From Candidatus Woesearchaeota archaeon (GTDB lineage Archaea; Nanobdellota; Nanobdellia; Woesearchaeales; ARS49), in NCBI GenBank assembly GCA_038891615.1, contig JAWADY010000001.1, positions 160,001-224,000 of the forward strand: a DNA stretch of 64,000 nt, read 5' to 3'. The translations under genes and the position numbers were made by a program. The notes under the pieces are model-generated. The model made no database searches, was not told the origin of the DNA, and saw only the letters and a list, made by a program, of their open reading frames with translations. Numbering within the stretch: the first letter of the stretch is position 1; each line of letters begins with the position of its first letter. Below are positions 27,274-46,557 of the stretch, piece by piece.

Positions 27274-29343
27274 ATGATAATTAATTCAATAAATCTCAGA
27301 AACATCAGGAGTTATGTTAATGAGCGCATAAATTTTCCAGAAGGTAGTATCCTTCTTTCTGGAGATGTTGGAGCAGGCAAAACAACAATTCTTCTAGCAA
27401 TCGAGTTTGCACTTTTTGGAATTCTTCGTGGAGAGGTTTCCGGTAGCTCTCTTCTCAGGAATGGTACGGAGAGTGGTTATGTTGAGCTTAGCCTTGAGCT
27501 TGGTGGAAAGCCAATCGTAATAAAGAGAACGCTAAGGCGTTCAAAAGGCAGCGTTGAGCAAGAATCTGGTGAAATATCAATCGATGGAATGCGACAGGTA
27601 CTAACGGCTACAGAGCTGAAGTCAAGAATTTTGTCGCTAATGGGATACCCCTTAGAGCTTGCAAGCAAGAGCAAGTCACTAATATACAGATACACAGTCT
27701 ACACCCCTCAAGATGAAATGAAAAGAATACTTTTTGAGGACAAAGAAAGTAGGCTAGACATATTAAGAAGGGTTTTCTTTATTGACAAATATAGAAGGAT
27801 AAAAGACAACACCACGATTTTTATAAGGCAACTACGCGAGCAACTACGCGAACTTGAGGGCGAGACTGCGGACTTGGATTATAAAACAAAAAGGTTGAAT
27901 GAAAAGAAGGATGAGCTTGCTGCAATTGAGATAAAACTGGTTAATGCATCATCTATCCTAAAGACTGCAAAAGAGTTTGTTGAAGTCGTCAGGAAGAAGT
28001 GCGCCGAGGCTGAGGCTATCTTGATAAAAGCGAACGAACTGAAAAGGAGCTTTGATGTTTTAAAAGCAGAGCTGGAGGGGGTGAATGAGCAAAAAGAAAG
28101 AACTCTTAAGGAGGCTGAGCTGCTAAAAAAACAAATCGGCGAGCTTGATGCGTTACTTGGAGAAGGGAGAAGTGAAGCGCATAAGGAAGTTATTTCAGAA
28201 CTTATCTCTAAAAAAAACCAAGAGCTTGATAGGTGTGAAAAGGAGATTCTGACCCAGAGGGAACATGTTGCATCGCTGAAAAACCAAAAAAGGCTTTCGG
28301 AAGATACAATATTAAAAATCTCAAAGCTAGAAAGTTGTCCTTTGTGTCTGCAAAAAGTTTCGGAAGAGCACAAGAAAAAAATAATGAGCAGAGAGGAAAC
28401 AGCTCTATCAAAGCTGGAAAAAGAGCTGGAAGAGCATCTTAAAATGATTGAAAATCTTGAGAAACAAAAAAGAGAAATAAAAGCAGAACTTGAGGCATTG
28501 AAAAAGAAAGAAGAAGAAGCTTTTGCAATTAAGCTTAAAGCTGAAAGCCTTATTGAAAAACGGCAACAGCTTTCTTCAAGACTTACTATTATTAAATCAC
28601 TCGAAGAGCGCGCAAGGAATCTAAGCAAAAAAATATCCGAGAATGAAGTCGTGCTTAAAACCCTTCAAACAGCTAGAGAGGATTATGAAAAGGCCCGCAA
28701 AGAACTGGACTTTGCCTTGGAAAAAGAAAAATGGGCAGAAGTTGAGTATGGAAAACTTCTGAAAGAAAAGGAAAGCCTTGTTTATGTTGTAAAGGAACTT
28801 GAAGCTGAGGTCCAAAAAAAGCTAAATGCTAAAGCAAAAATCGAACAAACAAAGCAATTGATTTCTTGGCTTGGAGAAAACTTTATTTCAATGATTGAAG
28901 CAATGGAAAAGGCAGTGATGGCTCGTGTGCATTCGCAGTTTAACGAACTTTTTACAAGGTGGTTCAACCTTCTCGTTGATGATGAACTAATCGCAGCAAG
29001 ACTTGATGAAGAATTCAGCCCAGTGCTCGAACAGAACGGCTATGAAACACCTGTAGAAAGCCTTAGCGGAGGTGAAAAGACCGCCTGCGCCCTCGCCTAC
29101 AGGCTTGCCTTAAACAAGGTCATAAACGACCTTATACACGGAATCCAGACAAAAGATGTGATAATTCTAGACGAACCAACAGACGGTTTCAGCAACAATC
29201 AGCTTGACCGCATGCGTGATGTTCTAAACCAGTTAGGCTTAAGACAAATAATCCTCGTTAGTCATGAAGAAAAGATAGAAAGCTTTGTAGAGCATGTCAT
29301 TAAGATATCAAAGAATGAGCATGTGAGTCAGGTTTGTGTATAA
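27274..29343 (+). CDS. Rad50/SbcC-like SMC ATPase
   Basis: GDVGAGKT Walker A, Q-loop, coiled coil with CPLC zinc hook, LSGGE, ILDEPT, SH. Confidence 0.9.
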   Translation: MIINSINLRNIRSYVNERINFPEGSILLSGDVGAGKTTILLAIEFALFGILRGEVSGSSLLRNGTESGYVELSLELGGKPIVIKRTLRRSKGSVEQESGEISIDGMRQVLTATELKSRILSLMGYPLELASKSKSLIYRYTVYTPQDEMKRILFEDKESRLDILRRVFFIDKYRRIKDNTTIFIRQLREQLRELEGETADLDYKTKRLNEKKDELAAIEIKLVNASSILKTAKEFVEVVRKKCAEAEAILIKANELKRSFDVLKAELEGVNEQKERTLKEAELLKKQIGELDALLGEGRSEAHKEVISELISKKNQELDRCEKEILTQREHVASLKNQKRLSEDTILKISKLESCPLCLQKVSEEHKKKIMSREETALSKLEKELEEHLKMIENLEKQKREIKAELEALKKKEEEAFAIKLKAESLIEKRQQLSSRLTIIKSLEERARNLSKKISENEVVLKTLQTAREDYEKARKELDFALEKEKWAEVEYGKLLKEKESLVYVVKELEAEVQKKLNAKAKIEQTKQLISWLGENFISMIEAMEKAVMARVHSQFNELFTRWFNLLVDDELIAARLDEEFSPVLEQNGYETPVESLSGGEKTACALAYRLALNKVINDLIHGIQTKDVIILDEPTDGFSNNQLDRMRDVLNQLGLRQIILVSHEEKIESFVEHVIKISKNEHVSQVCV

Positions 29344-29436
29344 ATGATTGTCAAGAAATGTCTTTGAAAAAGGACCAATGGCTACAAAAGCTTGAGCTTG
29401 CGCAAACTTTATAAATAAGATGAATTAAGTTTGTTT

Positions 29437-30888
29437 ATGCAAAAAAAGAGCGTACTTCTCGGATTTGTTTCAGTAACCCTTCTGACACTTTTAGCGAGCA
29501 TTGCTTTGGCATCTTTTGAATTTAATGTTGATGTAGCTCCTGAAGGAGCAGTCATAAAAATGAATGACAGTGCAGAGTTCACTCTAAGCGTTAGTCACAA
29601 TTCGCGAAATGTCGAATCTTTTGAAATATACTCTCCAGAAGTACAGTGGGATATACGAACAGAACCGCCAGGGCTATTAAAAGTTGCTCCAGGTGAAAAG
29701 GGAGAAACAAAACTTGTAATAAGGCCAGTATACATATCAAACCCAGGCTACTATTATGTTGTTATTCATGTGAGACCAATCGGCCGCGACATTCTTGTCA
29801 GAAAAGCTTTTGTGGTTGGAGTTCTACCAGCCTATCAAATACCTGGAGAGTATTCGCCTTCAATAAAGCTTTCCCCGAGCGTTGAAAAACTAATAGACCC
29901 AAGGGCTGAAAGCGTTGTGAAATTAACAGTAGAAAACCTGAACAGACGTGAGCTTGGTCAAATCGCAATCAGGCTTAGAAGCAATACAATAAATAAAGAT
30001 ATCTCATCATCACTTGGGCCTTTCGAGAGGAAATCATTTGATTTTAAAGTCTTTTTAGACCCACTAACTCCCCCACAGAAGGATGTGTTGACCGCCACCG
30101 TTTTCCTGCAACTGCCAGAAGGAACATATCAAATTGAGGCGGAACCTATCCCGTTTGAAATTTTGGCTTATGGCGAAATAACCGAGCAAACAGATGTCTC
30201 AAAGGGATTCTTAAAAACAACTAAAACAATCACATTTACCAATACAGGCAACTCACGTCAGAAAAAGGAATTTCTAGAGAAAAAGGCATTTTTCAAAAGT
30301 TGGTTTACTTCTTTCAATGAAGACTATGACAGAATTAAGGTCGTAGACAGGACTAATTACTACTCATGGAATATTGAGCTTGGTGTTGGCGAAAAGAAAG
30401 TTTTGATAATTACAACAAACTATAACCCACCTGCTTATCTCGCACTTGCTGTAATTGCTGGACTGCTCTTGTATTACCTTTTAAGGAGTCCTCTTGTATT
30501 AGTAAAATCAGCAACAATCCTAACCGCGCGTGAGGGCGGAGTATCTGAGTTCAAGATTCTGTTGAGGGTAAAAAACAGAAGTTCGAGAGCGCTGAAAAAT
30601 GTTTCAATACTTGACAGCATTCCAAGAATCGCAGATATTGTTCGCGACTTTGAGCTTGGAACCACAAAGCCTGAAAAAATATTAAGACACGAAAGCCGCG
30701 GCACAATGTTGAAGTGGCGTTTCAGCGAACTTGAACCATCTGAAGAAAGGCTCATAACGTATAGGATTTCTTCAAAGCTAAACATAATAGGCGGTGTCAC
30801 ATTGCCGGTTGCTGTTGCAAAGTTTGAGGTAAGAGATGGTGTTGAGCGAGTTACAAGAAGCAATGCGCCAGTTGTTGGGCTGATGTAA
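29437..30888 (+). CDS. secreted/membrane Ig-like multidomain protein
   Basis: Signal peptide, beta-rich repeats, internal TM (YLALAVIAGLLLYYLL), then a further beta-sandwich domain. Confidence 0.7.
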   Translation: MQKKSVLLGFVSVTLLTLLASIALASFEFNVDVAPEGAVIKMNDSAEFTLSVSHNSRNVESFEIYSPEVQWDIRTEPPGLLKVAPGEKGETKLVIRPVYISNPGYYYVVIHVRPIGRDILVRKAFVVGVLPAYQIPGEYSPSIKLSPSVEKLIDPRAESVVKLTVENLNRRELGQIAIRLRSNTINKDISSSLGPFERKSFDFKVFLDPLTPPQKDVLTATVFLQLPEGTYQIEAEPIPFEILAYGEITEQTDVSKGFLKTTKTITFTNTGNSRQKKEFLEKKAFFKSWFTSFNEDYDRIKVVDRTNYYSWNIELGVGEKKVLIITTNYNPPAYLALAVIAGLLLYYLLRSPLVLVKSATILTAREGGVSEFKILLRVKNRSSRALKNVSILDSIPRIADIVRDFELGTTKPEKILRHESRGTMLKWRFSELEPSEERLITYRISSKLNIIGGVTLPVAVAKFEVRDGVERVTRSNAPVVGLM

Positions 30889-31314: not shown

Positions 31315-31962
31315 TCATTTTTTTAATATTTTCTTTATATAACCGAACTGATCATGGAATATGTGAGCACTTGTGGAAAATGTTGTTATAGAGCCTGCGT
31401 CACAGCCAAGTTTTTTTCTTACATAATCTTGCAACACATATATCTGATAAATGTTAGCAGGCCATCCAAAGAAAAAGTCGTTTGACCTTATCACTGCGGT
31501 AAGGTTGAGTCTGTTCTCTCTCAACTTTAAATCGATCATCACAAGTCCTGGGATGTCACGTTTCATCACATTGCTGTCCTCTTTTGGGTCCCAAAGTGAG
31601 AGAACAGCTCTTCTGGAATTTGGAATCTCTTTTAGTAAAGGAATTATGAAATCGTTTATCTGATTTATTTTGCCTTGAAAATTAAATAACCTGGGTCCAT
31701 AGCTATATGAATAATCCGGCGCAAGCTTATTGGCAAGCATAACCTTTGCAATCTCATCAAACGGAGGATATTTCCAATTACCAAAAGTGTTTAAAAGCTG
31801 CATTGGTCTTGTTATGTCTTGTTCTGGATTTTTTATTTGCACCCCAAAGTTAAGCAATTCTCTGCACATCCTGTTGTTCTCGTCCATGAAATCCATTCCT
31901 CTTTTGAGTATCGTGGCAAGGCTTTGTTTCCATGCTTCCAATGCTGTTCTTGTGATTATCAT
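31315..31962 (-). CDS. thymidylate synthase-fold protein lacking the catalytic Cys
   Basis: YSYGPRL, NSRRA, RSND...G.PAN, SAHIF retained; the PC motif reads DIPGL. Confidence 0.85.
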   Translation of the reverse strand: MIITRTALEAWKQSLATILKRGMDFMDENNRMCRELLNFGVQIKNPEQDITRPMQLLNTFGNWKYPPFDEIAKVMLANKLAPDYSYSYGPRLFNFQGKINQINDFIIPLLKEIPNSRRAVLSLWDPKEDSNVMKRDIPGLVMIDLKLRENRLNLTAVIRSNDFFFGWPANIYQIYVLQDYVRKKLGCDAGSITTFSTSAHIFHDQFGYIKKILKK

Positions 31963-31964
31963 CT

Positions 31965-33563
31965 TCAGGTCAAAAACTGCTCCAATCTTACATTTAATTC
32001 TAAAGCACCTGAAAAAGAATATCTAAAAAATGGTAGTCTATAGGTGTTAAGTATGAAGCCCATCTCCCTTAGTACATCCTTGGGCTGCATTGGCCCTTTC
32101 TTATAAAAGCTTATCATATCTCCTCCATCAAAAACCTCGAACAATTTTTCCTTTGTTTCCATTACCTGTTTTAACTCGTCATTGTAAAGGTCGCTCAAAC
32201 CTCTTACAAAATAGCGCTTGTATGAAGGCTTTGTAAAGATGTCGCGTACAAAATCATCAAATGCGCATGAAAAAGCTACCCTAAATCTCGTAGGCATTCC
32301 ACAACTTTTGTATATCGTATCCTCAGCAATGCAAAAATCATCAACTGCCTTTTTGCTTTCCTTGAGATAACTAAGCAAGAACTCTATGCTAAACTGAGAA
32401 TTTTTCCAGCCGTAGTTCCAAAATCTCACATAATTTTTTCCAAACATAAAAAAATTTTTTGCATGGCTGGGGTCTAGTGCTATCAGGCTTCCAAAAAGCT
32501 CATCTGAGCGTTGCCGCTGAAGGGAATTGGCAAGCAGCAGAGAATCCGCAATTTTTAGTACAAAACGCTTGAACTGCTCTATTGCTTTTTCCTGATTCTG
32601 AAAGAACCTCTCTACATCGACCATTATTGTTGATTGACCACAAATGAGCCCAGGAATGTGTCCCTGCATTTCTTTCTCATAGAGTAACCATTCGTTTTCA
32701 GAAAAGGTGTACGGTCCAGCCTTGCCAACAAAATATGGCGCCTGATAGCAGTTTTGGTTCTTTATGTAAAGGCTTTCATTGTGTCTGGAGTAAAGCTGCA
32801 CAAGCTTTTCGAAAAAATCAGAATGCTCATAAAATTCCTTTAGTTGGGTGTCAAAAACAAAGGTTATGTTTCTATTTTTCTGTTGAAGAAGCAAAGAAAT
32901 AAGTTTAAGTATTGGCTCGCCCTTTGTCACATTTGTCATGTCGATAATGTAGCATATCTTTTTACCATAGTCATCACATTTTGCATTGAGCTTTGTCACA
33001 AACGGTGCAAGCAATTGGGTCTCTGATTTTTGGACCATGACTTCAAAATCGTTTACTGCAATAACATCATTGACAACACCAAAACATCCATTGATGGCAT
33101 GCCATAGCCCTTTAGGGCTCTTGAATAGCGATGCCTCAAGCAGAACACTGTTTAGCCTATCAATCCACGTTGTTGCCTCTAATTTATATATAATTCCCTT
33201 TTGTTCATAGCCTTCTACTGGCATGGGAGGAGTTATTGGTCGGGTGACAGTAATGTTATCAAAGTGTGGCACCTCTACCCCAGCCACAATTGCAAAGCTT
33301 TTTTCTTTGTTTTTACCTTCCTTTGTTATCCTTATGTAGCCTTCAAGAACAAGTTTGTTAAGATAGTAAAGAATGCGCCTGTGCAATTGTGCCTTACGTC
33401 TTTTTGCTTGCTTTTGTCTTTCAACATCACTAGAAATAAGCAATCTTTCAATCTCGTCATATCCTGGGGTTAGCTTCTCTACAATCTCTGTTGTAGAGAA
33501 TTCCTTTTCAGGATTCTTTGCTAAAAGTTCTAATATTGATGTTTCAAAATCTCCTTTACGCAT
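31965..33563 (-). CDS. large protein with N-terminal winged-helix domain and unknown alpha/beta C-terminal region
   Basis: ILELLA...FSTTEIVEKL...LHRRILYYLNKLV.EGYI plus wing; stop lies 2 bp before the TS-like start. Confidence 0.7.
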   Translation of the reverse strand: MRKGDFETSILELLAKNPEKEFSTTEIVEKLTPGYDEIERLLISSDVERQKQAKRRKAQLHRRILYYLNKLVLEGYIRITKEGKNKEKSFAIVAGVEVPHFDNITVTRPITPPMPVEGYEQKGIIYKLEATTWIDRLNSVLLEASLFKSPKGLWHAINGCFGVVNDVIAVNDFEVMVQKSETQLLAPFVTKLNAKCDDYGKKICYIIDMTNVTKGEPILKLISLLLQQKNRNITFVFDTQLKEFYEHSDFFEKLVQLYSRHNESLYIKNQNCYQAPYFVGKAGPYTFSENEWLLYEKEMQGHIPGLICGQSTIMVDVERFFQNQEKAIEQFKRFVLKIADSLLLANSLQRQRSDELFGSLIALDPSHAKNFFMFGKNYVRFWNYGWKNSQFSIEFLLSYLKESKKAVDDFCIAEDTIYKSCGMPTRFRVAFSCAFDDFVRDIFTKPSYKRYFVRGLSDLYNDELKQVMETKEKLFEVFDGGDMISFYKKGPMQPKDVLREMGFILNTYRLPFFRYSFSGALELNVRLEQFLT

Positions 33564-33628
33564 TAGCCACCCCTAAAAACTGTCTAAAACAGTCTATTAT
33601 ATAAAATTTATCATATTTCAGGAAATTT

Positions 33629-33647
33629 TATTGAAACGGTTTCAATA
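33629..33647. promoter_or_regulatory. perfect 19-bp palindrome TATTGAAAC-G-GTTTCAATA (candidate operator)
   Basis: Lies in the divergent intergenic region just upstream of a TATA-like box (~33596-33605) of the wHTH gene. Confidence 0.55.
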
Positions 33648-33825
33648 GTTTCAGAAGAATAATTTATATTTCAAAAAATAATTCTTATTTCAAATGCATA
33701 AAAAAAGGGATTCCTGAAACAAAAATTACACACAGGCCGAAAACCCGCCAATTTCGTTAAATCACAACAAGTAGAGCTCATTGGAGCTCCAGGAATCCCT
33801 GATTTAAGAAAGATTAGAAAATAAA

Positions 33826-34122
33826 ATGGCAGATTGTTTCATATGTGGCAAAAAATTGGTGAGAGTAAATCTTGATTTCATAATTAGTGGAATTGGGTAT
33901 AGATGTCTTAATTGTATGGGTATAAGTGTAAAAAGCCCTGCAAAGGCAGAAAAAATGGCTGCTCTTATAAGCTTGCTTGCAAGGGACTGCAGCACAAAAC
34001 TTCGCGAACTGAGTTCTACGCTAGGAGTGCCAAAGTCAACTCTGCATGATTATATTCGAGAGATAAAAAAAGGCTGCAAATTCACTTTTAGACTGAACAG
34101 GAGAAATTTAGATACTGTTTAG
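33826..34122 (+). CDS. small Zn-ribbon + HTH protein
   Basis: CFIC...CLNC; LRELSSTLGVPKSTLHDYI HTH. Confidence 0.65.
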   Translation: MADCFICGKKLVRVNLDFIISGIGYRCLNCMGISVKSPAKAEKMAALISLLARDCSTKLRELSSTLGVPKSTLHDYIREIKKGCKFTFRLNRRNLDTV

Positions 34123-37958: not shown

Positions 37959-40900
37959 ACACAGTAACTAAATTTCCAGCAACTAACTCTGCTTGTTTTA
38001 AAACGGTTTCTGTTGCTTTTTTTTCTTTATCAGGCGGATAGCCATATTTTCTCAGTATTTTCTTTACTTTGAGGCGCAACTCTGCTTGAACACTTTCTCT
38101 TTGTGTCCAGTCTATTGTAACACTTTTTCTTATCATTTGTGTTAGTTCGAGTGCTATTTTTCTTAAGGTTTCGTCACCAAGTATTTTAACTGCGCTATCA
38201 TTGGCTTCAAGTGCATCATAAAATGCAAGTTCATCTTCACTCATTCCAAGCTCTTTTCCCCTGTTTTTTTCTTCTCTAACTTTTCGTGCTAACTCTATTA
38301 ATTCTTCTACAGCTTGCGCAGCCTCTATAGTCCTATTTGTATATTTCTTTATTGTTTTATCCAGCATCTCCATGAAAGATTTGCCTCGAACAAGGTTTCT
38401 TTTTGAAATTATTTTAATCTCATCATTCAATAATTTTTTAAGAGCTTCAAACGCGAGGTTTTTCTGAGGCATATCTCTTACTTCAGCTAGAAAACGCTCT
38501 GATAAAATTGAAAGTTCTGGTTTTTTAATTCCAGCAGCCTCAAATATATCTATAATTCTATCAGAGATTACTGCCTTTGAAATAATCTGTTTGATTGCTG
38601 TTTCATATTCTTCTATTACATCTTTTTTGGTTTCGAGTTTTTTTGACATTGTTAATTTTAATGTCTGAAAAAAGCCAACTTCTTCCTTAATCTTCATGGC
38701 TTTTTCATGAGGAAATGACAAAGATAATGCTTTTACAAGAGCTGTTGCTTCTTTTCTAAATCTTTCTTTTTTCCCTGGCTCTTTTAGTATGTATTCCATT
38801 GCATTTAGCATGAAAGGAAATTTTTCTTTTGGCGAAAGCTCGAAAAATTTCTTGTAATTAAAACCATAAAACATATCTTTAACTATCTCATATTTTTCTA
38901 ACATTAATTTGACAGCCTCTTCTTGGTCCAATATTGGCTTTCCTTTACCGCCACTTAGTGTATAATCCATAAGTGCTTTTTTAAGTTCAGCTCCAACACC
39001 CATATAGTCGACAATCAGACCACCTTCCTTTCCAGGATAAACCCGATTCACTCTTGCTATTGCCTGCATTAGAGTATGACCTTTTATTGGCTTATCAAGA
39101 TACATTGTATGCAGAGATGGCGCATCGAACCCTGTCAAGAACATATCTCTTACGATAAGGAGTTTGATTTCATGTTTTGGGTCCCTAAAATTATCCCCTA
39201 TTCTCTTTCTTCTTTCTTTGTTTCTTATATGCTGCTGCCATTCTTTCGGGTCAGAAGCAGAGCCTGTTATTACGACTTTAATAAATCCTTTATCATCGTC
39301 ATCATTATGCCACTCTGGCCTTAGTTTTATTATCTCGTTATAAAGGTCAATGCATATTCTTCTCGACATACAAACAATCATTCCTTTTCCATCAAGGACA
39401 GAAAGCCTTTGCTCAAAATGATTTACAATGTCTTCTGCAATCCTTCTTATTCTTTTAGGAGCGCCCGCAACCTTTTCAAGACTTGCCCATTTACTTTTAA
39501 GTTTTTCTTTATGCTCTACCTCTTCGCCTTCTGTTACCTCCTCGAACTCTGGATCAATCTTTGGTCTTTCTTCTGGTTTTAACTCCAGCTTTGCTAATCT
39601 GCTTTCGTAAAATATTCCTACAGTAGCACCATCATTAATAGCTTGTTCAATATCATAAATATCAACATATTTTCCAAATACAGCAGGGGTTGATCTATCC
39701 TCTTTTTCTATTGGCGTTCCAGTAAAGCCAATGAATGACGCATTGGGCAAAGCATCTCTTAAGTACTTTGCATAACCATATGTTATAAGCACCTTATCTT
39801 CTTTTTTCAGTATTCTTGCAGGAAAACCATATTGGCTTCTATGAGCTTCATCCGCTATTACAATAATATTGTCTCGCTCTGATAGAGTAGGATACTTTTC
39901 TCTATCATCTTTTGTTTCTGGAAAGAATTTTTGTATAGTAGTAAAAATAATTCCGCCAGAAGCAACTTTAAGTAATTCCATCAGTTCTTTTCTTGTGCTT
40001 GCTTGAACTGGTTCTTGTCTTAATATGTCTTGACACTTGATAAAAGTTCCAAATAATTGGTCATCAAGGTCATTTCTGTCTGTAAGAACAACAATCGTAG
40101 GATTATCCAGTTGTCTAATAATTTTTCCAGCGTAAAAAATCATTGTCAAACTTTTTCCAGAACCCTGAGTGTGCCACACAATACCTGCCTTTTTATTTGT
40201 CCTTCTTGCCTGCAAGGTTGATTCTACTGCTTTATTTGCAGCCCAATACTGGTGATATGCTGCTAATTTCTTTTTTGTTTCTTTATCTTTTTCAAAAACA
40301 ATAAAGTTTCTTACGATATCTAAAAGCTTGTCTTTGTCAAGCATGCCTCTAAGCAAGATTTCTATTTCTGATAGCCCTTTCATCGGTTTTTCTCCTTCTA
40401 TTGTTTTCCACTGCATAAACCTCTCTGGCTCAGAAGTAATCGTGCCTGCTCTTGCATCCATGCCATCGCTAATAACTAAAATTTCGTTATATTTGAACAA
40501 AGAAGGTATCTGTTCTTTATATGTTTGAAATTGATTATATGCTGTCCAGATTGTTGCATCTTTATCTGCAGGGTTTTTTAACTCTATAACAACCAAAGGC
40601 AAGCCATTAACAAACAACACAATATCTGGCCTTCTTTCAGCATTGTTTTCTATTACTGTAAACTGGTTGACTGCAAGAAAATCATTATTTTTTATATCTT
40701 CAAAATCGAACAAATTAATCAAAACGTGCCTTTCTTCACCTGCTTTTGCTATAGGAATGCTGATACCATCTGTAAGCATCCTATGAAAGGTTTCATTGTC
40801 AACAAGCAACTTTTGGCTTCCTATTCTCAAGACTTCCTTTATAGCCTGCTCTCTCACCTCTTCTGAAACCTGCGGATTAATCCTTCTCAAAGCTTCTCTT

Positions 40901-41061
40901 AATCTATCAACAAGCACAACATCTTCATATCTCTGCCTTAGAGCATATTTTCCACCTGGTAAGTAATCCTCATTATTTCCCCTGATTACTTCATAGCCAA
41001 GGCTGCCCAAAACTGACAAAGCAAATTCTTCAACATCCGATTCATGGATTGCTTTTATCAT
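37957..41061 (-). CDS. hsdR: type I restriction endonuclease subunit R
   Basis: RPD..LFVNG...[41 protein letters not shown]. Confidence 0.98.
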
Positions 41062-41462
41062 TTCATCATCTTCTTAAATTTCAAGATTAAATTTTTCAAT
41101 TGTTCCACAACAACCTCTGCTTCTTCCTTTTCAAGCTTTTTTCCATAATAATTTACAGCGTTTCTAGTTTTTCTTAAATTATCAAAAATGTCAGCTTCCC
41201 TAGATAAATTTAATATTTCTTTTAGAAAAGCTGTGTAGCATTCATGATTATAAATTTTGAATCCTTTTTTAATAGGCAATGCTTCTAAAATCTCCCTTAA
41301 TGAATCGTACAATAAAGAAATTTTGCTTATAAGAAATTCATCAGCCAAAGAATCAGTAGAGTTAAATTTTATTTCTGCTGTTTCTAATAAAGATATTATC
41401 ATATTTTTATCCTCTTTCGTCTCTTTTGCAATTCTTTGTTTTAAGCATTCTCTCCAGTCCAT
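41058..41462 (-). CDS. HEPN-domain protein (RxxxxY variant)
   Basis: [25 protein letters not shown]; coupled to the upstream MNT gene. Confidence 0.8.
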
Positions 41463-41463
41463 C

Positions 41464-41976
41464 TTACCAGTTCCCTTTTATTTTGAAACCATTTAATATA
41501 TTTTTAAGCAAATTTTCACTTTTTACATCTTCAATTCCTCTAAAAACAAAAATCTGTATTCTCCTTTTTAGCAATTTTTCAAATTTCTCAAGATTAATTT
41601 CTTTTTTCGTTGGTGTAAAAATTGCAAGATCAATATCAGAATCAATCTTTGCTTCTCCTTTTGACAAAGAGCCAAAAAGATAAACTATTGGAGTTAATAA
41701 ATTCTTTTCCAATTCTTTCAATAAGCCGGAATCTTCTAATATTTTTTTCCAATAAATTCTTGATAACTCTACGAAAAGCTCAGAATCCTTATTTACAAAA
41801 TAATAATTATAAATCTTCTCTTTTTCTTTTTTGAGCAAGCCTTCTTTATACAAGTTTTCAAGAATCTTTGAAGCTGTCGGCGGGCTTATTTTTTGAATTC
41901 TTGCATACTCGCGAACATTAATCCGACTATAGCAATCTTCAAAGAAAGGCTTCAAAGTGTTAAATATTTCTAACAT
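41464..41976 (-). CDS. HTH-minimal nucleotidyltransferase (MNT antitoxin-like)
   Basis: INVREYAR..KISPPTASK.L HTH; LFGSLSKGE...DSDIDL (GS-x10-DxD). Confidence 0.9.
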   Translation of the reverse strand: MLEIFNTLKPFFEDCYSRINVREYARIQKISPPTASKILENLYKEGLLKKEKEKIYNYYFVNKDSELFVELSRIYWKKILEDSGLLKELEKNLLTPIVYLFGSLSKGEAKIDSDIDLAIFTPTKKEINLEKFEKLLKRRIQIFVFRGIEDVKSENLLKNILNGFKIKGNW

Positions 41977-42073
41977 ATGTTAAAAATAATTAACATTTCT
42001 ATTTAAATCTTTTGAAAAATAAACCTCAAAATATATGTTAAAAATAATTAACAAGTGTTAAAAAATATTAACA
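41958..42073. promoter_or_regulatory. four 18-bp palindromic operators TGTTAA-N6-TTAACA flanking the MNT promoter
   Basis: Copies at 41958-41975, 41978-41995, 42036-42053 and 42056-42073; minus-strand TTTAAATA box at ~42000-42007 between the pairs. Confidence 0.8.
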
Positions 42074-42081
42074 TTTTTGTA

Positions 42082-43461
42082 TTAAGCAGATTTTTTAATC
42101 TCCCTTTCCATCTCTTTTATCATCTCAGCAGGCACTCTAATTTTGCCAGACATAAGTTTAGGAAGGAGAGAATCGCGAAGTTGGGAGAAGGTGAGGGATT
42201 CTTTTAAGTTATTATAAATTCGATTATAGATAATAGTTAATATATTTTCAAAAATATCTAAAACTTTTTTTTCAGGTATTAAAATTTTTGTTGATTTAAT
42301 GTGATTTAAATTAATTATTGGCATAGTGCTTCCTGAAGATATTCTTTCCCAATATTTCTCTTCGGATAGTCTTTTAAGGAAGATAAATAAATAGAATCTT
42401 CCTATTTTGTTTTCGTCTATTGTTATTTTTGCTAAACGACTTACTATTACAGCCTTATCATAAATATCAGTCATAATCCCTAGTAATCCTAGAGTCCCCG
42501 TTTTTGATATAATTATATCTCCTTTTTTAACAGAACTCCTTTTAACTTCTTGAAATTTTTTTTCTGATATAAAATGCTTAAATGGCTTATATAAAGGATA
42601 ACCTTCCAAGTATTCCATTTCGATAATAGGAATTCCAGAATTTTGATATTCTGTTATTTTCATTTGTGTTCCGAATGGTCCATCGACTATTGAATTTTTC
42701 TCATCAGAGGATATATCTTCGATTTTCCCAACCCTCCACCCCTTAGGTATCTCTTTGCCGAGCTCTTCATTATAAACCATTTCTCCGCCAGAGCTTTTGT
42801 AAGGCTTACCCTCTTCATTCGGAAACTCAAAATCAACAAACCAGTGCTTGAAAATTGCCTGGCCAATTGCCTCAAGGGTTTTGTTCATTCGCTGGTTGAG
42901 TTCGATCTTATCATCAAATGCCGAAAGAACTTTAGCAATGGCGCGTTGCTCGGGGAGGGGCGGGATAGGAAGTTCTACATCCTTAAAAGTGTTTGTAGTT
43001 ATGGTTTCAAAAACAGTTCCATAAGATACAGATCTAATCTTATTTATCGAGTTTTTAATCGAATAATAGAGGTATATTACATCATATTCTTTTTTTGGTT
43101 GTAAACCATAACATGTCTGATTAAAAGTCATCGGCTCTGGTAATAATGCTATTGCACCGACAGTCCCTCTCGAAGTAATTACAATTGTATTTTTTGGATG
43201 GATTTTTGCATTGCTATTCTTTACTCCCTCTTCGGTTATTGTTCTTTCTGTAACTGTTACATATCGCGACTTAACATTTGCAATATCCCTTGCAGTTGCC
43301 CATTTAAATTTTCCATCCCAAAAATATTTAATTTCTGTTTTAGGGGTTCCCCCTAATGAAATATCGCATGTTTCACTAATAGATTTAACCTCCCAATCCT
43401 CAGGGATCATTCCGATTTCAGTTTGTTTGAATTTGGGTTTATTTTGGGTTTGAGGGTTCAT
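42082..43461 (-). CDS. hsdS: type I R-M specificity subunit
   Basis: FKQTEIG.IPEDW, PPLPEQ.AI, central conserved region to EIPKGW, LRDSLLPKLMSG; two TRDs. Confidence 0.96.
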   Translation of the reverse strand: MNPQTQNKPKFKQTEIGMIPEDWEVKSISETCDISLGGTPKTEIKYFWDGKFKWATARDIANVKSRYVTVTERTITEEGVKNSNAKIHPKNTIVITSRGTVGAIALLPEPMTFNQTCYGLQPKKEYDVIYLYYSIKNSINKIRSVSYGTVFETITTNTFKDVELPIPPLPEQRAIAKVLSAFDDKIELNQRMNKTLEAIGQAIFKHWFVDFEFPNEEGKPYKSSGGEMVYNEELGKEIPKGWRVGKIEDISSDEKNSIVDGPFGTQMKITEYQNSGIPIIEMEYLEGYPLYKPFKHFISEKKFQEVKRSSVKKGDIIISKTGTLGLLGIMTDIYDKAVIVSRLAKITIDENKIGRFYLFIFLKRLSEEKYWERISSGSTMPIINLNHIKSTKILIPEKKVLDIFENILTIIYNRIYNNLKESLTFSQLRDSLLPKLMSGKIRVPAEMIKEMEREIKKSA

Positions 43462-45031
43462 TTTTAACCACCATAAGTAATATACAGTTGTTATTGTTGT
43501 CTGGCACTTTGATAATCTCAATATTTGGCATTTTTGTCCTTTCTTGAAGTGATTTAACAATTGTTTTTATTCTATCATCATCAAACTTAGAAATAGGAAT
43601 AGGTTCAAATTGTTTTGTTTTTTCATTTGCACCAATGATATATACCTTTATATTAGACTCCTTCACCTTTTTACTAAGGTCGCTAGCAAAATAAGAAACT
43701 ATTTCATCGTTACTACCTGAAAAAACATCCGAAGATTTCAATTCTAGTATTTCGTTTTCAGTATTTACAAAACTAATGTCAAAAGTTGAATTTTCAAATA
43801 TCTTTTTAGATAGGCAATTTAAAAAATAACAAATAGGTTTATCTTCATTCTCTATGGCTAATAATTTTAAAATAGAGCCCAATAAAATACTATTAAATGA
43901 GTCTCTTATTTGCATTTTTTCATAATAATCTAAAAGTATTTTACTTAATTCTTTCTGTAGCTCGTTATAAATCTCCATGTTTTTTATTTTAATTGAGTTT
44001 GCGGATATTCTACAGCCTGCATGATAAACTCTGAAAGATTCGTTATTCAATAATTTAGTTTTAATTTCTTCTAAGAAACTTCCCCGAATTTCTATGCTAT
44101 TGTCTGAAAATAGTATTAGGAAGTTAGGATTTGTCTTTTTAATTATCACGTTGCCGTCTTGTTTTACAACATTATTCTTATCATCAAATATTTTTTCCTG
44201 ATATGGAATGATAGAATTTTTTAACTTTATGTATTCTTCATTATAATAACTCAGATTATATCGTTTTGCTAAAAAATCTTGTACAAAATCATCATAATTT
44301 GTATATGGCTTCCTACCAACTTTGACTAATGACAACGGTATTCTTTCTATCGGAGCAGGTAAAATTATTTGTTTGTCCTTGACCTTAAACGCTTTTTCTT
44401 CTATAAACTTTTTCTCGAAATCGTCATCACTTAATTCTAAAGAAAAAGGAACCCCGCTTACTTCACCACAAAATTTATTTTTACCGCCCAAATATTCAAA
44501 TGCCACTTTTTGAGGTATACCTAACCAGTTAGCAAAGAACACAGAAGGATTAGTTTCATAAAAAATAACATCAATACTATCTTTCTCATTTTTAAAGTAA
44601 ACAAATCTCAGGATATTATCTTTATCAAGCATTCTGTCTATAACCTCCCATTTGGGTGTAATGGTTTCCTCACCAAAGAGGCTATGACAAAGTATGACAA
44701 ATTCGGATGTGACTATACAAATCGCATATTTCTCTTCCATCCTCATTCTGGTGTTCATTTCGTCGCTAAAATCGTTAAGTAATTCTTTTGCGTCTCTGTC
44801 ATCTATTAAAGGATAAGAGGAAATCAAATTTTTAATCCAAATTTGACAATTCTCCTTTAATTGAATTTCATCAAATTTTTTTCTTTTACCTAAATTTAAT
44901 AACGAATTAACAACCTTCGTTATTTTATCTTTATCTACTTTTCTGGTTATTTTATCTTGGTTAATATCATTCTCAATTACTTTCTTTGAATATACGAATG
45001 TTGGCTCTCCCTTATTTTGATTTGTAATCAT
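43439..45031 (-). CDS. uncharacterised protein with C-terminal Schlafen/AlbA_2-like domain, inserted between hsdM and hsdS
   Basis: C-terminal ENEILELKSS...VYIIGANE...IEIIKV...ILLMVV; very AT-rich; coupled to both neighbours. Confidence 0.6.
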   Translation of the reverse strand: MITNQNKGEPTFVYSKKVIENDINQDKITRKVDKDKITKVVNSLLNLGKRKKFDEIQLKENCQIWIKNLISSYPLIDDRDAKELLNDFSDEMNTRMRMEEKYAICIVTSEFVILCHSLFGEETITPKWEVIDRMLDKDNILRFVYFKNEKDSIDVIFYETNPSVFFANWLGIPQKVAFEYLGGKNKFCGEVSGVPFSLELSDDDFEKKFIEEKAFKVKDKQIILPAPIERIPLSLVKVGRKPYTNYDDFVQDFLAKRYNLSYYNEEYIKLKNSIIPYQEKIFDDKNNVVKQDGNVIIKKTNPNFLILFSDNSIEIRGSFLEEIKTKLLNNESFRVYHAGCRISANSIKIKNMEIYNELQKELSKILLDYYEKMQIRDSFNSILLGSILKLLAIENEDKPICYFLNCLSKKIFENSTFDISFVNTENEILELKSSDVFSGSNDEIVSYFASDLSKKVKESNIKVYIIGANEKTKQFEPIPISKFDDDRIKTIVKSLQERTKMPNIEIIKVPDNNNNCILLMVVKNEPSNPK

Positions 45032-45033
45032 TA

Positions 45034-46557
45034 TTACACACTCCACCCCAGCATCTCCAAATTTCTTTTTATTTCTTCATCTAGCTTTTTGCTCTCTTCC
45101 ATTTGCTGTTTGAGTTCTGCTGTGAGTTTTTTCATTTTTTCTTCAAAAACTTCTTCTGGCTCTTCTTGTTCTTCAAAGCCGACATAACGGCCTGGTGTTA
45201 AAATGAAATTATTTTTTTCAACTTCTTGTAATGAAGCAGATTTGCAAAAACCAGGGATGTCTTTATATCCAAGTTTGTTTTCTCCTCTCCATGCATGGTA
45301 AGTATCGGCAATTTTCTTTATTTCATCATCAGTTAATTCTCTATGTCTTCTATCAATCATTACGCCCATTTTTCTGGCATCGATAAACAGAATCTTTCCT
45401 CGTCTATCTTTGAACTTGTTATCTTTTTTATCACGAGCAATAAACCATAAACAAGCTGGAATCATTGTGTTGTAGAACAGCTGCGATGGCAAAGCGACAA
45501 TACAATCTACGAGGTCTGCTTTGATAATATTTTTTCTTATTTCTCCTTCGTTAGAAGTCATTGAGCTTAAAGAGCCGTTAGCAAGAACAAAACCAGCAAT
45601 TCCTGTTGGTGATAAATGATGGATAAAATGCTGTACCCATGCAAAATTGGCATTTCCTTTTGGTGGAACACCAAACTTCCACCTAACATCTTCTTGTAAT
45701 AACTCGCCGCCCCAGTCTGAATCATTAAAAGGAGGATTTGCTAGGATAAAATCAGCCTTCAAATCCTTGAATTGGTCGTCATGAAAAGAATCACCCCACT
45801 TAATGTTTGCGTCAATTCTTCTTATCGCAAGGTTCATTTTGCACAGACGCCACGTTGTCTGGTTGCTTTCTTGACCATAAATTGAAATATCTCCAATCTT
45901 TCCACCATGAGCTTCAACAAATTTTTCTGATTGAACAAACATTCCTCCTGAACCACAACAAGGGTCAAATATTCTTCCTTTGTATGGTTCAAGCATTTCA
46001 ACAAGCAATTTTACAATGCATCTCGGTGTGTAGAACTGACCGCCTTTTTTGCCTTCTGCAGATGCAAATTGTCCAAGAAAATATTCGTAAACTCTTCCAA
46101 GAATGTCTTTGCTTTTGTTTTCTTTATCACCTAGCCCAATCGTGCCAATTAAATCTATTAGTTCTCCTAGGCGCTGCTTGCTTAATGCTGGCCTTGCATA
46201 AATCTTTGGGAGAACACCTTTTAATGAGGGATTATCCCTTTCGATATCCTCCATTGCATGGTCTATGAGTTCTCCAATTTCTGGCTTTTTTGCATTAGCC
46301 TGCAAATACTCCCATCGCGCTTCTTTTGGAACCCAGAAAACTCTTCTTGCAAGATATTCGTCAACATCTTCTGGATCAGCTTCTGGGTCTTTTTTTAATT
46401 CTTCATAAACTTCTTTAAAAGAGTCGGAAATGTATTTTAAGAATATTAAACCTAAAACAACATGCTTGTATTCTGCAGCATCCATATTGCTTCTCAACTT
46501 GTCTGCAGCCTGCCAGAGCTTCTCTTCGAAACCTAAATTCGCACTATTAGTTTTCAT
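45034..46557 (-). CDS. hsdM: type I R-M m6A methyltransferase subunit
   Basis: [34 protein letters not shown]. Confidence 0.98.

Follow-up and report, generated by a model that had tools for sequence, protein, structure and literature searches.

Thymidylate synthase (TS) of the ThyA type and ribonucleotide reductase (RNR) are among the best-studied enzymes, and each of them is defined by a catalytic cysteine. Nucleotide-sensing regulators derived from enzymes are also known, such as NrdR, which is built on an ATP-cone, PyrR, which is a homologue of phosphoribosyltransferases, and BirA, a bifunctional enzyme-repressor in which a ligase is joined to a winged helix. Here we describe a pair of adjacent genes from the genome of a hot-spring Candidatus Woesearchaeota archaeon (assembly GCA_038891615.1, 661 kb, completeness 97.9%; relatives of this genome are labelled Woesearchaeota in public records), which lie in a stretch of 64,000 nucleotides of contig JAWADY010000001.1 (G000:C1:160001-224000) that is referred to below as the window. 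The downstream gene encodes a 215-residue protein with the ThyA fold but without the nucleophilic cysteine (the small subunit), and the upstream gene encodes a 532-residue protein in which a winged helix precedes a barrel resembling that of the class III reductase NrdD (the large subunit). The explanation that we tentatively favour, at somewhat less than an even chance, is that two pseudoenzymes associate here into a complex that binds nucleotides and exerts a regulatory effect by way of its winged helix. All structural statements made below refer to predicted models.

Both proteins have described counterparts that they resemble in part. The small subunit shares its fold and length class, as well as the SRR, RS.D, P.N and SAH motifs, with the ThyA proteins of TIGR03283 and with fusions of MtrA-like, TS and PterinBD domains. 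Unlike TIGR03283 ThyA, however, it scores below the model cut-off, has glycine, serine or alanine in place of the cysteine and phenylalanine in place of the tyrosine of the HIY motif, is always paired with an NrdD-like gene and is not the synthase of its genome. In its predicted structure the large subunit shows the ten-stranded barrel and central hairpin of class III NrdD, and its extra N-terminal domain of helix type is also seen in archaeal NrdDs that carry DUF7347 and an ATP-cone; unlike NrdD, it lacks a sequence-level match, the glycyl-radical motif, the zinc site, the ATP-cone and the cysteine of the finger loop, and it falls about 200 residues short of the NrdDs found in this order. The idea shared with NrdR, PyrR and BirA is that of a borrowed domain that reads the nucleotide pool and drives a nucleic-acid-binding module, DNA binding by the pair being putative; none of these three has a ThyA or RNR catalytic barrel, and none is a two-protein complex of dead enzymes. 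In the cited passages on the trypanosomatid S-adenosylmethionine decarboxylase 'prozyme' and on a dead deoxyhypusine synthase paralogue (PMC6221367, PMC3663545), a dead paralogue is likewise kept for complex formation, but in those systems the dead subunit serves to activate a live paralogue from its own family, whereas in the pair both partners appear to be dead and come from two families. No description of such a pair was found in the literature searched on thymidylate synthase, RNR, pseudoenzymes and DPANN archaea (supplements fell outside this scope).

The small subunit belongs to Pfam PF00303 (Thymidylat_synt; E 2.9e-17, 63.1 bits with a cut-off of 24.3), aligns over its full length with TIGR03283, the methanogen-type ThyA (141.6 bits, under the model cut-off of 174.55), and is matched by TS families of PHROG (E 2e-29); in public records it is named 'thymidylate synthase'. 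A first reading of the locus made from the letters alone (hereafter the sequence-only reading) had held that two open reading frames (ORFs) stand 2 bp apart, that in the downstream product the nucleophile is replaced by a glycine whose codon is two base changes from one for cysteine, that the HIY tyrosine is phenylalanine, and that the YGxR, SRR, RSND and SAH motifs and the asparagine of PAN are kept. It had also proposed that homologues be examined for cysteine loss and gene pairing, that a separate ThyA or ThyX be sought in the genome and that the two proteins be co-folded. The description was borne out in each of these respects. Both ORFs are present with the 2-bp spacing, and in HMMER alignments to solved structures the glycine of 'DIPGLV' falls on the catalytic cysteine of Bacillus subtilis ThyA (1bko) and of MilA (5b6d), its codon being two changes away from TGT or TGC. 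The codon check also confirmed Phe202, 13 residues before the C-terminus, and the motifs start at residues 88 (YGPR), 116 (SRR), 159 (RSND), 168 (PAN) and 198 (SAH).

Loss of the cysteine is conserved across homologues. The nucleophile column of 120 database relatives holds glycine in 92, serine in 22, alanine in six and cysteine in none; the 30 best loci have 17 glycines, 12 serines and one alanine, again with no cysteine, and six more distant orthologues have four serines, one alanine and one glycine. Position 202 is phenylalanine in 115/120 relatives and tyrosine in 4/120. Position 139 switches among glycine, serine and alanine even between close relatives, whereas the ligand-contacting residues stay fixed: R159, S160 and H200 are kept in 120/120 relatives, R117 in 119/120, N170 in 115/120 and R118 in 111/120, and R31 and D162 are also among the residues kept in 111-120 of the 120. 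P138 and G166 are invariant as well, and D162, like R117 and N170, is nearly so. The phosphate-binding arginines and serine and the base-reading asparagine of ThyA are present in the small protein, as judged by motif identity and by an offset of +7 taken from the aligned ranges, and we take their E. coli counterparts to be R126', R127', R166, S167 and N177. In the cited passages on E. coli ThyA, Asp169 is the residue that binds the cofactor's pteridine, uracil is oriented by Asn177, and Tyr209 together with His207 holds the sugar hydroxyl (PMC6514825); the Cys146 nucleophile is required in the TS-superfamily activities described there (PMC6514825, PMC13326640). Judged from its residues, the ThyA-like protein is unable to use the Cys-dependent mechanism, and the restriction of column 139 to small residues fits a pocket that is still occupied.

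Gene pairing is conserved as well. A search for the small protein in 201 genomes of the same order (TS tally 132/201) gave full-length close relatives in 48 genomes (33-64% identity, frames of about 215-250 aa). The profile of the large protein matched 52/201 genomes of the order, and 51 hold the barrel protein, the match in G047 being only a 96-residue winged-helix piece. By the coordinates, the 532-aa gene is immediately followed by a ThyA-like gene of the same orientation in 51/51 genomes that hold it, three of these cases being interrupted by contig ends, and the gene junctions of -20 to +39 bp (21 loci) suggest translational coupling. Close homologues that keep the PC motif and are unlinked to the winged-helix gene, the pattern that the sequence-only reading had associated with simple decay, were looked for among the relatives and not seen. 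The features of the pair recur in every orthologue examined, which is far beyond chance. In a phylum sample of 201 genomes, 39/39 matches fall within the window's own order, and in the window's own family the gene occurs in merely 2/19 further genomes; the pair is thus confined to one lineage and has a patchy distribution. The label 'Leptospiraceae bacterium' on one close relative (P0347, from a 3.3-kb contig) of the small protein is probably a binning error; all other named relatives are DPANN archaea.

The AlphaFold2 model of the large protein, based on 20 orthologues (predicted local distance difference test, pLDDT, 84.9; predicted template modelling score, pTM, 0.75), consists of a winged-helix head, a disordered linker and 5+5 beta-alpha units with a hairpin between the two halves (DSSP strands 137-143, 164-171, 202-208, 233-239, 265-269, 305-316, 376-382, 429-433, 484-488 and 512-516). 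The head has the topology H-H-H-H-beta-beta, its residues 1-110 modelled alone reach a pLDDT of 84.6, and R62 (97%) and L65 (98%) of the head are among the most conserved residues of the family in 205 sequences. Pfam gives a weak match of the head to DUF6293_C (E 0.0045 with the whole protein, 0.00034 with the first 110 aa), PADLOC a weak match to a CARF-associated winged helix (E 2.7e-4), and Foldseek matches to PadR, Fur, ArsR/SqrR, RosR and protein-binding winged helices (template modelling score, TM, 0.41-0.51; E 8.5e-3 to 0.15). For the whole protein, the best Foldseek matches in the PDB are class III RNRs (NrdD; E 8e-8 to 1e-6, TM 0.40-0.47 normalised on the whole query), and among the matches listed ranks 1-47 are all RNRs, of classes III, Id, Ib, II and Ia with E up to 1.7e-4, followed at rank 48 by the structural-genomics protein 2ha9. 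A structure search of the ESM Atlas with the barrel alone gave TM 0.72-0.81 to archaeal PF13597 (NRDD) clusters, several of which carry N-terminal DUF7347 and an ATP-cone and are automatically named ArsR regulators, so that a helix-type domain fused to NrdD is an archaeal theme; a feature search of the same resource gave glycyl-radical enzymes of YjjI type (0.93). The sequence-only reading had seen a regulator with a large alpha/beta region of unknown kind; the winged helix is upheld by the model, and the region is, by fold, an NrdD-like barrel without radical machinery. A Walker-B-like strand that had been read into VIAVNDFE found no support, as this stretch (within residues 164-174, with conserved N165 and D166) is the second barrel strand in the model, and no Walker A motif was seen in the protein.

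In these models the likeness of the large protein to NrdD is visible by fold alone. The PF13597 profile has no match in it at E <= 1, and a sequence link to any known family was rejected, matches to Pfam and NCBIfam being at chance level and an hmmsearch of the PDB empty. With hhalign, the comparison with the class II-type RNR of its own genome gave Prob 0.4%, and that with 14 NrdDs of the order gave a collinear stretch of 55 columns over the last two strands (Prob 2.9%, E 0.016), which is not evidence on its own. The protein is named 'hypothetical' in public records, as are all of its 114 matched relatives, which all come from Woese-, Pace- or Nanoarchaeota; the name 'DisA' on a JGI record of one homologue was considered, and nothing found supports it. 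A profile search of 1.84 billion representatives gave 239 matches at E <= 0.001, the best 150 of which (all E <= 1e-55) are full-length members or fragments of the protein's own family, and the family comprises about 240 clusters at 50% identity.

The elements that define a reductase appear to be missing from the large protein. Its hairpin, presumed from model topology and spacing to be the finger loop, is strongly conserved (G280 in 205/205, G283 in 203/205 and Y285 in 198/205 sequences) and has no conserved cysteine. Genuine NrdDs occur in 40/101 genomes of the order, including pair-holding ones, and the 14 NrdDs compared have an invariant M-C-C finger-loop motif and then about 75 further residues with a C..H..C..C zinc site and RVVGY; the large protein ends at residue 532, 16 residues past its last strand, with neither a zinc site nor a glycyl-radical tail. 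The window's genome has two canonical PF02867 reductases, and a family search found no NrdD in it. A radical S-adenosylmethionine gene is not among the conserved neighbours of the pair in the clusters scanned at 21 loci, no search aimed at NrdG having been made. The most conserved loop of the large protein is the one around C421 (198/205), G422 (203/205) and P424 (196/205). The barrel also has the conserved polar residues D166, N269, D316, R350, R380 and N383, of which D166, D316 and R380 reach at least 97%.

Co-folding supports binding of the two proteins to each other. The interface score ipSAE (interaction prediction score from aligned errors) was 0.71, 0.71 and 0.74, and the best of three controls gave 0.00; the mark applied is reached by 58/80 solved complexes and 2/110 mismatched pairs, a calibration that holds roughly here, since purpose-built alignments were used. 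The runs share at least 91% of contacts, with a partner pLDDT of at least 89. The predicted interface is formed by helices 336-372 and loop 409-425 of the large protein and by residues 61-67, 81-88, 136-140, 161-170, 173 and 204 of the small one, and the contacts of lowest error involve I417, Y418, S420, C421 and G422 of the large protein. In the model, the loop of residues 416-425 meets small-subunit residues 138-140, 161-162, 165-167 and 169-170 and fills the region around D162, G166 and A169; N170 and the residues next to Gly139 are contacted as well. ThyA itself covers its open folate site with its own C-terminus. The C421 loop is placed at the centre of the interface and touches residues 65, 66, 71, 74, 166, 169 and 173. 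We take the E. coli residues to map onto the small protein by motif identity and the aligned ranges. On this mapping the contacts match sites given for E. coli ThyA in the cited passages (PMC6514825), which puts the IYKSCGMP loop on the cofactor (folate) side of the pocket.

In the explanation that we prefer, the two genes would encode subunits of one complex, both of them disabled relatives of central enzymes of deoxynucleotide synthesis. The small subunit would still have the pocket in which ThyA receives a 5'-mononucleotide of uracil or thymine type, with the phosphate-binding arginine and serine, the base-reading asparagine and the sugar-contacting histidine in place, and would bind without ThyA chemistry because the site of the nucleophile holds a small residue. 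The NrdD-derived large subunit may shut this pocket from the folate side with its IYKSCGMP loop, and occupancy of the pocket, perhaps even the C5 substituent that distinguishes deoxyuridine monophosphate (dUMP) from thymidine monophosphate (dTMP), could be coupled to the large subunit and passed on through the winged helix, which would bind DNA or another partner. The unit would thus act as a sensor of the pyrimidine-nucleotide pool rather than as a synthase. The sequence-only reading, which had proposed a pseudoenzyme that binds dUMP, dTMP or a modified pyrimidine and signals to the regulator, is partly supported by the residue losses, the pairing, the separate ThyX and the co-fold. In this family a reductase barrel appears to have lost all its radical machinery and acquired a winged helix, and by gene linkage and predicted contact its obligate partner is now a ThyA that has no nucleophilic cysteine. 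If the pair is a sensor, archaea, which are not known to have NrdR, would possess in it a new means of reading the pyrimidine pool. The host organisms are thought to depend on scavenged nucleotides, and the label 'thymidylate synthase' on the small protein inflates the apparent capacity for dTMP synthesis in metabolic reconstructions of these symbiotic archaea.

A separate thymidylate synthase is present in the window's genome, namely a ThyX outside the window (G000:C1:25951-27327; L002, L003), a single frame of 579 aa in which the Thy1 domain occurs twice; beyond the small protein, a PF00303 gene was not found in this genome. Many genomes of the order have a frame of about 430-670 aa that likewise contains two Thy1 matches, so that tandem fusion of ThyX seems common there. 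ThyX was identified in 30/51 pair-holding genomes and in 96/201 genomes of the order; another 12/51 pair-holding genomes have a further ThyA-type match to a protein query, and two more have a canonical ThyA by Pfam search, so that 44/51 carry another ThyA or ThyX. With the queries used, no other ThyA or ThyX was found in 7/51 pair-holding genomes (completeness 89-100%), one of which, G093, has a second PF00303 match just under the cut-off. Absence of a synthase is not special to the pair, because 15/150 genomes without the pair also have neither type. Given these distributions, it is scarcely credible that the small protein is still the thymidylate synthase of the cell, or a folate-independent one, or that the pair is a decaying remnant. 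A synthase would agree with the public name and with the seven genomes in which no other was found, but the nucleophile is missing in 120/120 relatives and 44/51 pair-holding genomes have another synthase; decay is contradicted by intact frames with 42-64% identity over 30 loci from many families, by conserved motifs in both proteins and by retention of the pair in a 661-kb genome. Three unpublished genomes each supply one row to these counts, G112 in the 30/30 and 51/51 counts and among the seven genomes without another synthase, G183 in the TS tally and G132 in the 96/201 tally of ThyX, and the conclusions are independent of all three.

Within the order, the TS-type proteins that come closest to the small subunit are fusions of 470-660 aa that combine MtrA-like, TS and PterinBD-DUF4346 domains (L054-L059, L067, L068); they keep PC and SAH-I/L-Y in 8/8 cases examined. 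A solitary 210-aa TS with PC and no partner gene was identified in G004. In two genomes, G051 (contig C160) and G078 (contig C5), the coordinates put the fusion gene and a genuine NrdD gene no more than about 1 kb apart and in the same orientation, which may represent an intact counterpart of the dead pair. In a tree of 47 TS-type rows (30 + 6 + 2 paired, eight fusion domains and one solo, canonical ThyAs of about 290 aa not being included), the fusions separate with support of 100/99, and the position of two paired rows that keep the cysteine is not settled, a single loss being neither shown nor excluded. These two rows come from one family on a divergent branch (G046, G161), and as they keep PC while paired, the cysteine appears to have been lost after the pair was formed. 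Compensation by a cysteine in trans was considered and rejected, as there is no covariation between the two cysteine positions; G087 and G091 have no cysteine in either subunit at the positions of interest. Since glycine, serine and alanine vary at position 139, the ligand-contacting residues are fixed and a Cys-bearing branch coexists with Cys-less ones, the selected function seems to need no nucleophile, but an occupied pocket and a partner.

Several observations, both in the proteins and in the promoter described below, weigh against a sensor of the pyrimidine pool. The near-invariant Cys421 at the predicted interface hints at chemistry, and so do E35 (109/120) and Y88 (116/120) of the small protein, which we take to be equivalents of catalytic, non-binding residues of ThyA. 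In G046 and G161 the paired small subunit keeps PC and its partner keeps the C-G motif. The head of the large protein has no winged-helix fold match at E <= 1e-3, and protein-binding winged helices are among its matches. The main rival, possible though less likely than the sensor, is a working two-subunit enzyme with a composite active site. A pyrimidine nucleotide would be held in position by the ThyA-like subunit and reached from the folate side by catalytic groups of the NrdD-like subunit (Cys421, Tyr418 and others), or the barrel of the latter would host a non-radical reaction on a nucleotide; the winged helix would serve autoregulation or assembly, as it does in enzyme-repressors such as BirA. 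The conservation of the C421 loop and of D166, D316 and R380, the position of this loop at the centre of the predicted interface, the enzymatic ancestor suggested by the Cys-bearing small subunits of G046 and G161, and a dedicated promoter element with a usually adjacent Lrp/AsnC gene (16/21 loci), typical of metabolic operons, would all agree with such an enzyme, which would carry out new chemistry. However, C421 is missing in 7/205 large subunits, no compensatory pattern emerges because G087 and G091 have neither cysteine and G046 and G161 have both, the barrel has no recognised RNR catalytic element, and no candidate reaction can be named; moreover, the TS-superfamily activities described in the cited passages require Cys146 (PMC6514825, PMC13326640). 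A live folate-independent enzyme, with the Cys421 loop in the place of folate and giving a reactive thiol in trans, is unlikely; the C5/C6 chemistry that it would imply on the pyrimidine has no known precedent in either superfamily.

The promoter of the pair has its own conserved element. The repeat GTTTCAG-N7-CTGAAAC was identified with up to two mismatches in 17/25 upstream regions of related loci, 35 of 83 exact heptamers fall in 5,757 upstream bases out of 299,563 bases (20 loci), and in five genomes the best genome-wide palindrome sits at the operon of the pair. A regulon for this operator was sought and rejected, as matches with two mismatches are as frequent as those of a reversed-pattern control in five genomes; the three remaining matches with 0-1 mismatches fall within ORFs or in a stretch resembling a tRNA, which leaves the pair's own promoter as the one place where a conserved operator was seen. 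One perfect match, L074 (G016:C1:841554-841574), stands just ahead of a sequence resembling the T-arm of a tRNA and probably belongs to a tRNA gene rather than to an operator. The N7 palindrome was not found in the window's own genome, where the promoter of the pair has two exact heptamers, and the 13-bp form CTGAA-N3-TTCAG occurs in just 13/25 upstream regions. A divergent gene of Lrp/AsnC type (PF01037, E 6e-6) lies beside the pair in 16/21 loci, and because the N7 repeat is present in 15/16 loci with this gene versus 1/4 without it (one of the four ending at a contig edge), the operator may belong to the Lrp/AsnC regulator; its occurrence follows this adjacent gene no less closely than it follows the winged helix. 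Among public runs, no RNA data set that holds the sequence was listed. Archaeal regulators of Lrp type bind palindromes of TGAAA/TTTCA type, and a dedicated regulator would be unusual for a sensor. In the window's genome the Lrp/AsnC orthologue is unlinked (C2:76895-77386), and the place that this gene has in the 16/21 related loci is taken by a divergent 98-aa ORF with two CxxC pairs, in which a zinc ribbon and an AsnC/IclR-type helix-turn-helix are weakly matched by Pfam (E 0.0015-0.0067).

The patchy distribution of the pair (52/201 genomes matched, 51 with the barrel, and 2/19 in the window's own family) may also suggest an antiviral or stress sensor, in which the dead pocket reads a virus-made pyrimidine nucleotide, for instance 5-substituted dUMP or deoxycytidine monophosphate, or an unbalanced pool, whereupon the complex sets off a response. 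A low-GC stretch about 10 kb away would be in keeping with this, as would the role of viruses as the main source of variant TS-family products in the cited passages of PMC13326640. Membership of a defence family was nevertheless rejected in the PADLOC search, which gave no match for the small subunit and only the weak one for the large subunit, no effector domain is present, and in 21 loci the pair is surrounded not by defence genes but by housekeeping ones, among them those for arginyl-tRNA synthetase, a GTPase and Lrp/AsnC; N170, kept in 115/120 relatives, is a reader of uracil type. An antiviral or stress-sensing role is accordingly quite improbable.

Features of the gene pair and its surroundings (positions in the numbering of the window)
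Feature	Position	Strand	Basis
ThyA-fold protein without nucleophilic Cys, small subunit, 215 aa	31315..31962	-	ORF, PF00303, TIGR03283, conserved residues
Phe202 codon TTC, in place of the HIY Tyr (Tyr209 in E. coli)	31357..31359	-	codon check, 120 relatives
Gly139 codon GGA, site of the ThyA nucleophile	31546..31548	-	structure alignments, codon check, relatives' column
Winged helix and NrdD-like barrel, large subunit, 532 aa	31965..33563	-	ORF, AlphaFold2 model, Foldseek, Atlas
Alpha/beta barrel, 5+5 strands, RNR / glycyl-radical-enzyme type, residues ~125-532	31968..33191	-	DSSP, fold matches
TIYKSCGMPT, most conserved loop, predicted insertion into the ThyA-like cleft, residues 416-425	32289..32318	-	conservation, co-fold
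Hairpin PYFVGKAGPYT between barrel halves, presumed finger loop without Cys, residues 276-286	32706..32738	-	model topology, 205 sequences
Winged-helix domain, residues 1-95, conserved LHR(K/R)xLYYLNKL helix and KGEK wing	33279..33563	-	topology, weak fold matches
Promoter region of the pair	33564..33825	.	elements listed by position
TATA-like TTTATATA, operon sense	33598-33605		
CTGAAAT, beside the TATA-like box	33615-33621		
Palindrome TTGAAACCGTTTCAA	33631-33645		
CTGAAAC-type heptamers	33648-33654, 33714-33720		
98-aa ORF, divergent neighbour	33826-34122	+	weak Pfam matches
689-aa coiled-coil ORF	27274-29343	+	
485-aa ORF	29431-30888	+	
Low-GC stretch	38001-46000		GC content

Two further ORFs are located immediately downstream of the pair on the opposite strand. 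The 689-aa ORF encodes a coiled-coil protein with a P-loop-like GDVGAGKT at its start and a central CPLC motif, and could be labelled an ATPase of Rad50/SMC type, a name read off the sequence by eye. The 485-aa protein belongs to no Pfam family and has hydrophobic stretches at its N- and C-termini. On the other side of the pair, the low-GC stretch has a GC content of 0.31-0.35, compared with 0.37-0.43 elsewhere in the window, and may be an acquired island.

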